Origin: Candidatus Melainabacteria bacterium 17Bon1m
GTDB taxonomy: Bacteria > Cyanobacteriota > Vampirovibrionia > Obscuribacterales > Obscuribacteraceae
Assembly (NCBI GenBank): GCA_032128875.1
Contig: JAVLKG010000011.1
Location: 140,392-204,391 of the forward strand
Length of the DNA: 64,000 nucleotides
Direction of reading: 5' to 3'
Below the pieces are notes generated by a model that worked only from the letters and a program-made list of their open reading frames with translations, was not told the DNA's origin and made no database searches. Of the stretch, positions 26,998-28,803 are shown piece by piece (within the stretch, counting starts at the first letter, position 1; every line of letters starts with the position of its first letter). Position numbers and translations under genes: made by a program.

Positions 26998-28020
26998 TTA
27001 AACCCTTTCTCCAACACGTAGTTTAGCACTACGACTACGTATGTTGGCAAGCACTTCTTTTTCAGATGCAGTGACCGGTTTGCTGGTCATTATCAGCAAC
27101 TTAGGATCTTTGCCACACGTGCAAACCGGCTGCCTGGGCGGACATACGCAACCTTTCTCGTACAACTTGAGAATTTGCTTAACGATGCGATCTTCCAAGC
27201 TGTGAAAGCTGATAACCGCGAGCCTGGCGCCCGGAGCGAGGATTTTCACAGACTCATGTAAAAATTTTTCCAGACTTGCCAACTCGGTATTCACCGCAAT
27301 TCTTAACGCTTGAAATGTGCGAGTGGCTGGATGCGAGTCGTCAAGCCTATCTGATCTGCTTTTCGATCGATTCTTGTTATGCCCTCTGGTACCACGGGCG
27401 GTATATATACATCCGGCAACAATCTCTGATAATTCAGCCGTAGTATGTATCGGACGCTTGCTGACTATGCGGCGTGCAATCTGGCGGCTGAGACGTTCTT
27501 CACCATATTTGTAGATGATGTCTGCGATTTCTCGTTCCTGAAATTCGTTTACTATCGTTGCTGCACTAAGTTTCTGAGTGTGATCCATTCGCATATCCAG
27601 AGGGCCGTCTTTCAGAAAGCTAAAGCCCCTTTCGGGATTGTCAAGCTGCATGCTGGACACTCCTATGTCTGCGAGTATGCCACCATCCACAGTGCTGATA
27701 CCCAGCGATTCCAGATGCTCGCCGATGTCGCTGTAATCGCCATGAATGTACGATGCAGCGCCTGGCAATCTTGCTGCGACCTTGTCAAGCGATGCCTTGT
27801 CTTTGTCGATGCCAATCAACTTTCCAGTCGGTCCCATCCGCTCACGAATCGCCTGCAAATGTCCGCCGGCACCAACTGTGGCGTCCACGTAAGTGAGCCC
27901 GGGCCGAATGTTCAAAGCGTCCAAGCATTCATCGAGCAGAACAGAGACGTGCTCTCTTGGCGCTTTTCCCTCTGGGGAAAAGTTGCTCTTGGAATCTTCC
28001 TTTGAGTTATTGCTATCTAT
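26998..28020 (-). CDS. rsmH: 16S rRNA m4C1402 methyltransferase; probable non-canonical ATA start
   Basis: DATVGAGGH, DIGVSSMQLD, GPLDMRM, HPATRTFQALRIAVN, ISFHSLEDR, RSRSAKLR. The conserved HVSVLLDE lies upstream of the track's TTG (27924). Confidence 0.93.
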   Translation of the reverse strand: MDSNNSKEDSKSNFSPEGKAPREHVSVLLDECLDALNIRPGLTYVDATVGAGGHLQAIRERMGPTGKLIGIDKDKASLDKVAARLPGAASYIHGDYSDIGEHLESLGISTVDGGILADIGVSSMQLDNPERGFSFLKDGPLDMRMDHTQKLSAATIVNEFQEREIADIIYKYGEERLSRQIARRIVSKRPIHTTAELSEIVAGCIYTARGTRGHNKNRSKSRSDRLDDSHPATRTFQALRIAVNTELASLEKFLHESVKILAPGARLAVISFHSLEDRIVKQILKLYEKGCVCPPRQPVCTCGKDPKLLIMTSKPVTASEKEVLANIRSRSAKLRVGERV

Positions 28021-28029
28021 TGTTTTTAC

Positions 28030-28497
28030 TTATGACTTGCGTTTTGCCAGAAAATCGAAATCCCAGCAAGTGAAATAAAGGAGCTGAATCGTCAAAAGGC
28101 TCATCAATGCAGTAAGTAGCATTGGGCTAAGCCACTCCGGCCTCTCGGCCCAGACATTAAGATACAGCGCGCCGTGCATAAGCGCCAGCGGCATTATGAA
28201 TAGAGAAATTATTGCGACAACTTGTCTAGTGGTGGCAGTCGTGCCTGCCCAGTGCCAGCGAAGACCATCCCACCAGTAAGTTGGAGCGACTTTCACGCCC
28301 AGGCGACGTGCCGGGTAGAGTCTCCTGCCTCCGCGCAGTGGTACGAAGCAGCGCTCGCAGCTGTTGCAGGACAAGGTTTCTGTCAGTCCGTACGGTTCCA
28401 AAATCCCGGCGTTGCAGCGCGGACAAGGATAGGACTGGTTGAGAACGATGACTTGTTGGTGAAAGGAAAGCTGTTCGTATGATTGAAACATTGCCAA
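28030..28497 (-). CDS. Zinc-ribbon (CPRC/CNSC) membrane protein
   Basis: Two CxxC pairs and two C-terminal TMs; sits where mraZ usually is. Confidence 0.75.
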   Translation of the reverse strand: MAMFQSYEQLSFHQQVIVLNQSYPCPRCNAGILEPYGLTETLSCNSCERCFVPLRGGRRLYPARRLGVKVAPTYWWDGLRWHWAGTTATTRQVVAIISLFIMPLALMHGALYLNVWAERPEWLSPMLLTALMSLLTIQLLYFTCWDFDFLAKRKS

Positions 28498-28803
28498 TTA
28501 GCCCAATGAGGTCAGGGAGTCGCTGATGACCGGGTTCGCCGCGGCCGAAAAACGACGCACGGAATCACCACCGGCCCTTGAGTGAGGCTGGTCGCGGAGG
28601 TGACAAAAACCCTGTCACTTGTTAATTACCCGCGGAAGGGCATCAAACCGCGCTTGTTGAGAAACATTAGCTATATTTAATGCCGTGATGAGCCCCATAC
28701 CGAGGGACTCCTCACGCCTGGCTCTCTAAAACCAGGCTGTAATTCGCTTTGCCGCGAAATAGTTCATTTGACTGTATGAAAAAAACTGTTTCGCAATGTG
28801 AAA

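Follow-up and report, generated by a model that had tools for sequence, protein, structure and literature searches.

The 64,000-nucleotide stretch of contig JAVLKG010000011.1 of Candidatus Melainabacteria bacterium 17Bon1m analyzed here (hereafter, the window) carries the gene rsmH (mraW), for the 16S rRNA methyltransferase RsmH, directly downstream of a gene for a Zn-ribbon membrane protein. In this rsmH, no ATG, GTG or TTG codon precedes the conserved N-terminus of the protein. The features of the locus, in window positions, are listed below.

26998..28020, minus strand: rsmH (mraW) coding sequence as proposed, with an ATA start, 340 codons and the stop TAA at 27000-26998; matches PF01795.
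28018..28020, minus strand: proposed AUA (ATA) initiation codon, from comparison across congeners.
27952..28017, minus strand: hydrophilic N-terminal extension of 22 codons (DSNNSKEDSKSNFSPEGKAPRE), free of indels and stops in 10 congeners.
27928..27954, minus strand: conserved RsmH N-terminal motif E-H-V-S-V-L-L-D-E, aligned with the start of PF01795.
27922..27924, minus strand: TTG, the first canonical codon, downstream of the EHVSVLLDE motif and not considered the start.
28021..28029, minus strand: 9-nucleotide (nt) spacer between the upstream stop and ATA (GTAAAAACA), the sole site of indels.
28030..28032, minus strand: TAA that ends the upstream gene and, in the window genome, shares the frame of rsmH.
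28030..28497, minus strand: upstream gene, encoding a CxxC...CxxC Zn-ribbon and membrane segments, with the C-terminus ...CWDFDFLAKRKS (translation of the open reading frame, ORF).

The stop-to-stop frame of rsmH consists of 343 codons (26998-28029 on the minus strand) and is bounded at its 5' end by the TAA at 28032-28030, after which it reads GTA AAA ACA ATA GAT AGC ... GAG CAC GTC TCT GTT CTG CTC GAT GAA TGC TTG. There is no ATG, GTG or TTG among the 35 codons between this TAA and the TTG at 27924-27922. The translation matches the Pfam MraW model PF01795 with an E value of 5.4e-105 (351.7 bits, against a cut-off of 27), and the match, which extends over residues 26-342 of the stop-to-stop translation and profile positions 3-308 of 309, begins upstream of the first canonical codon. 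The protein contains both EHVSVLL and the S-adenosylmethionine (SAM) motif VDATVGAGGH. The pattern used to search for RsmH combined the N-terminal motif HxxV[LM] with the SAM motif D-x-T-x-G-x-GGH, and was present in 104 of 106, 108 of 110 and 76 of 80 loci in three locus sets. By family match, the predicted product of the rsmH gene of the window is RsmH/MraW, the 16S rRNA m4C1402 methyltransferase.

The original prediction, made from the window alone, had placed the first in-frame ATG, GTG or TTG (TTG 27924) past the RsmH N-terminal motif, had the frame open for 35 codons up to the in-frame TAA of the Zn-ribbon gene, and had pointed to the ATA at 28020-28018, 9 nt past that stop; all of this is borne out by the window sequence. 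By itself, a run of 35 codons free of canonical starts is not rare, with an estimated chance of about 0.95^35 = 0.17. What takes the observation beyond chance is that a conserved protein motif, with codons that vary synonymously among 10 species, lies upstream of the first canonical codon and that ATA is found at the same place in all 10 congeners.

These congeners are the 10 genomes with an intact rsmH 5' end; rsmH was found in 40 of the 41 related genomes searched. None of the 10 has a canonical start before the motif, and all 10 have ATA exactly 23 codons ahead of the motif histidine. The zone in which translation could start, bounded by an in-frame stop, is 25-26 codons long, and in eight of the 10 genomes ATA is the sole ATA, ATT, ATC or CTG codon between that stop and the motif. 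In six of the 10, the second codon 5' of ATA is an in-frame TAG, so that the possible starts there are ATA and two poorly conserved codons. Indels are confined to the sequence 5' of ATA, with none between ATA and the motif, and rsmH is otherwise of the same length in all 10. The motif residues H, V, V, L, L and E are invariant in the 10 species while their codons vary synonymously, and the ratio of nonsynonymous to synonymous variation (pN/pS) in the core of rsmH, the 100 codons counted from the motif histidine, is 0.16. The motif is thus under selection at the protein level, and translation must start upstream of it. In the extension behind ATA, pN/pS is 0.47 in frame, compared to 0.83 and 0.72 in the other frames. 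Taken together, the invariant ATA, the one-sided indels and the bounded start zone strongly support AUA initiation as originally proposed, and with high probability, we infer, translation of rsmH begins at AUA 28020-28018.

A missing start codon could also reflect an ATG-to-ATA sequencing error, or a truncated or dead gene read from TTG 27924; nothing beyond the missing codon itself speaks for either, and we regard the chance of such an artefact or decay as practically negligible. Positions 28018-28020 are identical in contigs from four public runs of three studies (two of these runs might derive from the source sample), and the 10 independent assemblies agree; a sequencing error was rejected on these grounds. 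One of the runs, X7, from a separate study, has the same ATA along with seven listed differences elsewhere in rsmH. Decay is further contradicted by the low pN/pS of the core and the conservation of the motif. The codon at the position of TTG 27924 is TTG in only two of the 10 congeners and CTG or CTT in the other eight; because of this and of its location past the conserved motif, a start at TTG 27924 was rejected.

Another alternative raised at the outset, readthrough of the upstream stop or a frameshift that would fuse RsmH to the upstream membrane protein, draws on the in-frame position of the upstream TAA in the window genome. That stop, however, is in frame with rsmH in only three of the 10 congeners and out of frame in seven; six contain the additional in-frame TAG, and in two basal species the two genes overlap out of frame (CTGA). 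The fusion was accordingly dropped, and we consider readthrough or frameshifting extremely improbable. The alignment of rsmH 5' regions across relatives, proposed as a check on the original prediction, thus upheld a conserved non-AUG start and did not uphold in-frame coupling.

Translation could also start at some other non-canonical codon inside the extension, for example, the AAG at codon -13, which is invariant and is preceded in the window genome by the stretch AAGGAAGA, similar to a Shine-Dalgarno (SD) sequence. This SD-like stretch keeps its GGA in only six of the 10 congeners, the second-position U is conserved in all known start codons according to the available part of PMC6868393, the three-codon invariant run that includes AAG is ordinary (rsmH has 11 runs of three or more), and the indels stop exactly at ATA, not at AAG. 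A start at such a codon therefore appears highly improbable.

Several observations weigh against initiation at AUA or its coupling to the upstream gene. The invariance of ATA is not significant alone: 10 of the 20 invariant isoleucine columns of rsmH keep a single codon, as do 42% of all invariant-amino-acid columns across the 10 species, and AAG, a poorer near-cognate, is likewise invariant at codon -13. Selection on the extension is weak, as its pN/pS of 0.47 indicates. The runs X2 and X3, labeled as RNA-Seq, yielded contigs of 33 kb and 7 kb that are identical to the window over 27400-28700; these look like DNA carry-over and indicate presence rather than transcription or co-transcription. 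Finally, three loci of other members of the family (L016, L109 and L113) have a start-less rsmH with ATT behind an SD-like sequence instead of an upstream stop, an arrangement which implies that coupling is not needed for such starts. At one of these, L016 (genome G018), the upstream gene is followed by a terminator-like hairpin (GGGCGGATTGCAAAATCCGCCC and a T run), then GAGGAAG, 5 nt and ATT; this is a start-less rsmH without coupling.

In the window's genus, the arrangement of the junction is different. Three of the 10 congeners, the window genome included, have a 9-nt spacer from the upstream stop to ATA, and the other seven have one of 10 nt. No GGAG-type SD sequence was found in the 30 nt upstream of ATA, where TAAGTAG bears a weak resemblance to TAAGGAG, and a consensus scan of the junction for promoters and terminators produced nothing above the shuffle level, with no Rfam match. 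A start that abuts the upstream stop, at a junction where these scans produced no such signal, suggests reinitiation after termination. A gene with the same C-terminus as the Zn-ribbon protein (...CWDFDFL.K.K., followed by the stop) precedes rsmH by no more than 420 nt in 63 of 104 loci; the Zn-ribbon gene matches no Pfam family at an E value of 0.01, and its look-alikes in Atlas belong to Melainabacteria and Cyanobacteriota clusters. Relative to the upstream stop, rsmH of relatives starts with a GTGA overlap (one genome), with GTG at +6 (five) or with ATG at -1 or 0 (seven), compared to ATA at +9 or +10 in the window's genus and CTG at -4 in the two basal species. This variety of codons at the same upstream stop suggests that coupling is ancestral and that the start codon has changed. 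Most likely, then, terminating ribosomes reinitiate at the rsmH AUA, that is, the two genes would be translationally coupled.

Four further candidates were tried, of which the first three were rejected. First, an RNA element within the extension: GAT TCC AAG is invariant at the nucleotide level, which is within the background of the gene given the single-codon columns and invariant runs described above, the region folds no better than shuffles (z-score -1.6), and there is no match in Rfam. Second, a special initiator tRNA: the genome has four tRNA-CAU genes, and none of its initiator-like tRNAs bears the anticodon UAU, GAU or AAU. Third, decoding of ATA as methionine: ATA swaps with ATT and ATC in conserved isoleucine columns. 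Fourth, A-to-I editing of AUA, which is not supported: the RNA-labeled contigs show no difference, although these are DNA-like and rare variants would be lost in them. TadA targets the context UACG, which is not seen at the rsmH AUA. As an observation in its own right, assembly G000 encodes, in addition to the canonical initiator tRNA (contig C3, 735011-735087), a second initiator-like tRNA-CAU (contig C3, 1010244-1010321, minus strand) with three G-C pairs in the anticodon stem, a U1:A72 pair and the anticodon loop CUCAUAU.

To place the window gene in its phylogenetic context, 104 genomes of the family were searched for rsmH; 101 yielded a match, and the motif was found in 98 family loci. 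In 15 of these 98, there is no canonical codon from the in-frame stop to the motif histidine. In a quick maximum-likelihood tree of rsmH (103 rows), with support values from the SH-like approximate likelihood ratio test (SH-aLRT), the start-less genes form three groups: 12 rows from the window's genus and one sister genus (SH-aLRT 99), a pair of species from a different genus (SH-aLRT 98), and a lone genome. When the labels were shuffled 500 times, more than three changes were needed every time. The start-less state has persisted in at least 12 species, among which protein identity falls as low as 62%.

The candidate start codons differ between these clades, with ATA in the window's genus, ATC or CTG in the two species at the base of the large clade, where the sequence is CAA ATC CTG A and the CTG overlaps the upstream TGA, and ATT in the other two clades, where the three genomes have it behind SD-like AGGA or GAGGAAG. 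An AUA, AUC or AUU (collectively, AUH) codon is thus on offer in every start-less lineage. In the genus denoted g13, ATT is all that the two start-less species retain of the ATG or ATG-ATT present in their sister species. Elsewhere in the family, 12 rows, which together belong to a single subclade, have TTG at -2 as the closest canonical rsmH codon, and many others have GTG, whereas outside the family ATG is the closest in 74 of 108. Start-less rsmH was not detected outside the family, neither among the 108 genes of a phylum sample nor among the 68 additional loci that a scan of named genomes provided, including 51 from other phyla as judged by their record titles (0/51).

Conserved AUH start codons are, to our knowledge, very rare in bacteria. 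Chloramphenicol acetyltransferase (CAT) reporters in Escherichia coli, as described in the available part of PMC3643588, yield about 3% of the AUG level with AUA (238 versus 7314 units) and about 3-5% with AUA, AUU and AUC, so that AUA can be considered a workable weak start. Our preferred explanation, which on sequence comparison we consider likely, combines a functional rsmH, an AUA start read by the ordinary initiator tRNA, and coupling to the upstream gene. Ribosomes would end at the stop of the Zn-ribbon gene and reinitiate 9-10 nt further on at AUA without an SD sequence, the AUA would be recognized by the ordinary initiator tRNA, and such a weak, coupled start would keep the output of RsmH low.

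The original prediction had gone further and proposed a negative feedback, in which 30S subunits that lack m4C1402 would accept AUA better and a shortage of RsmH would raise RsmH synthesis. We consider this additional layer, which is drawn by analogy, rather unlikely. It is in line with the phenotype of the E. coli rsmH deletion, where initiation at AUU is up 1.8-fold, an effect tied by the authors to the third codon letter (PMC2831307, in part): AUA, AUC and AUU all mismatch at the third letter, and all three start-less clades offer one of these codons. The three origins of start-less rsmH in one family are circumstantial support. On the other side, the E. coli effect is small, and AUA is outside the codons assayed in the rsmH mutant in the available text of PMC2831307. 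A strain without any 16S rRNA modification showed reduced initiation at GUG and UUG (preprint 10.64898/2026.09.08.748864, available portion). Loss of rsmD in E. coli doubles initiation at AUA (PMC3643588, same portion), yet rsmD starts with TTG here. Furthermore, were translation to begin at CTG in the two basal species, the loop would be predicted to have the reverse polarity.

Additional evidence comes from ksgA (PF00398), which had been chosen as the first control on account of its N-terminal motif and itself proved start-less. In all 10 congeners, its 5' end reads GTGGAGG TTCCTCGCA ATT AGC, that is, an SD sequence, 9 nt and ATT, with the ATT located 25 codons before GQNFL and overlapping the stop (TAG or TAA) of the DUF21/CorC gene upstream, as in ATTAG. 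In sister genera, ATG, GTG or TTG is found no more than two codons away from this place (22-25 codons before GQNFL). Across the family, 16 of 86 ksgA loci, from the window's genus and from genomes G015, G018, G021, G098, G050 and G051, have ATT at -24 or -25 and no conserved canonical alternative (in G015, there is a CTG at -23). In assembly G000, ksgA (rsmA) is located outside the window, on contig C2 at about 1087687 on the plus strand (locus L143), and this genome alone has an extra ATG 12 codons further into the gene.

The ATT start of ksgA fits the feedback proposal, given that deletion of ksgA also relaxes start choice in E. coli, with more initiation at CUG, AUA and AGG reporters (PMC6868393, available part). 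So do the controls: rsmI, the loss of which did not raise AUU initiation according to the portion of PMC2831307 at hand, has TTG or ATG, and conserved canonical starts were found for seven of seven control genes in five genomes (infC, rsmI and rsmD with TTG, rsmE with ATG, rsmG and truB with GTG, and trmD with GTG or TTG). For a further control, rlmH, the Pfam family PF02590 was not found in any of the five genomes. AUH starts occur in rsmH and ksgA together in g1, g4 and g7, in rsmH only in g13, and in ksgA only in g10, g44 and g30; this overlap rests on few independent lineages. Against the feedback, genus g13 combines ATT in rsmH with ATG or TTG in ksgA.

AUH starts are not restricted to rRNA methyltransferase genes either, which lowers the specificity that feedback would call for. 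The DUF21/CorC-type membrane gene upstream of ksgA has an in-frame TGA followed by TTT GCC ATT, and no canonical codon occurs in it before the first membrane helix has begun; it is start-less in all nine loci where the 5' end was found, out of 10 looked at, with ATC in one. In eight of these nine, a three-codon mini-ORF (ATG or TTG, GAT GCG TGA) ends at the TGA, and the ninth has a one-codon GTG. In G000, this gene is on contig C2 at about 1086300 on the plus strand (locus L143, positions 59-1448). In MutS2, the conserved N-terminus is not preceded by any canonical start in three of three congeners: G000 and G007 read TAG ACC ATT TTT, and G002 has ATT TTT at the corresponding position, where two sister genera have ATG. 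A gene for an MFS transporter has an ATT or ATC start in two of three congeners, in G000 as AAGGAG, 9 nt and ATT. The MutS2 and MFS transporter genes of G000 are at 963234 and 510133 of contig C2, both on the plus strand (loci L458 and L453).

Such starts are nevertheless uncommon among unselected genes. In nine locus triplets, DUF21 is the only start-less gene among about 23 real neighboring genes (32 ORF groups judged), and a syntenic stretch of 20 kb with about 15 real genes (25 ORF groups judged) contains no start-less gene, for a total of about 37 of 38 neighboring genes with a canonical start. Across the G000 genome, SD-led AUH codons are not enriched (2.2-2.7% versus 2.8% for all codons), and there is no excess of AUH in the first four codons of high-scoring prefixes in this genome. 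The codon and hexamer coding-potential profiles used upstream of the first canonical codon are blind to fractions below an estimated 5-10% or so and were swamped by shadow ORFs of GC-richer contigs. The latter are contigs C7, C8, C13, C18, C19, C23 and C24 of G000, with a GC content of 0.53-0.54 compared to 0.49 and long shadow ORFs in large number; they possibly do not belong to the bin, for which the listed contamination is 4.5%. A prfB-like split frame is located on contig C7 at about 10982. On the minus strand of locus L162 (G000 contig C2), a 414-codon ORF has a first ATG that is an isoleucine codon in G002 and a conserved second ATG 14 codons in.

These findings bear on a simpler alternative, in which the weak start of rsmH is tolerated without any regulation: the enzyme would be needed in small amounts, coupling would supply the ribosomes, and GTG or TTG would have drifted to AUH and stayed. 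We put this at slightly below an even chance. It is compatible with the frequent use of TTG or GTG by rsmH in the family, against the prevalence of ATG outside it; with the ATG or ATG-ATT of the g13 sister species, where the start-less ones have ATT only; with ATT or ATC in several unrelated genes of the genus; and with TTG or GTG in infC, rsmI, rsmD, rsmG, trmD and truB here. Less easily reconciled with tolerance are the persistence of the start-less state across so many species, its three origins in rsmH versus one case among the roughly 38 unselected neighboring genes, and the absence of a genome-wide excess of SD-led AUH codons. The lineage uses weak starts more freely than most bacteria, and simple tolerance is a strong rival to feedback.

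The textbook case of a conserved AUH start, that of the gene infC for initiation factor 3 (IF3), is a feedback device. The infC AUU autoregulation loop is described in the available parts of PMC2831307 and PMC5499595. As in E. coli infC, the conserved AUH start of rsmH belongs to a gene whose product governs the use of such codons; unlike infC, rsmH encodes an rRNA methyltransferase, its codon is AUA without an SD sequence, and the feedback is only proposed. In the family to which this rsmH belongs, infC itself has TTG behind GAGGAG instead of AUU. The start codon of infC is usually AUU. The TTG (TTG AGC) was observed in the genus and in other members of the family (loci L031-L055 and L182-L185; L031 is infC of G000, contig C2 at about 458400, minus strand), and the class-level relative at L047 retains AAGGAGGA...ATT.

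The junction also resembles classical termination-reinitiation (ATGA, TAATG), with the rsmH start on the same strand as the upstream stop and at a distance of -4 to +10 nt from it, and the classic GTGA and ATG-at-stop configurations at the same junction in relatives; the difference is that the codon here is AUA (or CUG or AUC) rather than AUG, GUG or UUG, and reinitiation would have to tolerate these. With the frameshift of prfB, the gene for release factor 2 (RF2), rsmH would share the principle that a product acting in translation sets its own level by way of the step it performs, although prfB involves termination and frameshifting and rsmH concerns initiation. Van Gemen et al. reportedly described autogenous translational control of E. 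coli ksgA in 1989. This would be a similar case of a 16S methyltransferase regulated at its own translation, as proposed for rsmH, except that the protein is said to act on its own mRNA and not through a non-AUG start. Full-text literature searches found neither a non-AUG start nor start-codon feedback described for rsmH or ksgA, and the available text of a 2026 paper on Bacillus subtilis MraW (PMC13659658) describes no such start or feedback.

An extension of the feedback proposal, again by analogy and in our view distinctly unlikely, is that RsmH and KsgA, both produced from AUH codons, form an infC-like homeostat, in which under-methylated 30S subunits would translate more of both enzymes. 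If so, the set-point of this homeostat would fix the efficiency of AUH starts, which would explain the ATT and ATC starts of MutS2, DUF21 and the MFS transporter and account for infC having swapped AUU for TTG in this lineage.

Gene finders that consider only ATG, GTG and TTG would be expected to truncate the conserved N-terminus of RsmH, KsgA, MutS2 and others; the exact sequence of the 308-residue, TTG-start form of RsmH was not found in the protein collection. If the feedback is true, rsmH and ksgA would become the second and third cases of feedback through an AUH start, in genes that tune the ribosomal P site. rRNA modification would then be tied to the fidelity of start-codon choice, and the small phenotypes of rsmH and ksgA in E. 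coli would gain physiological meaning.

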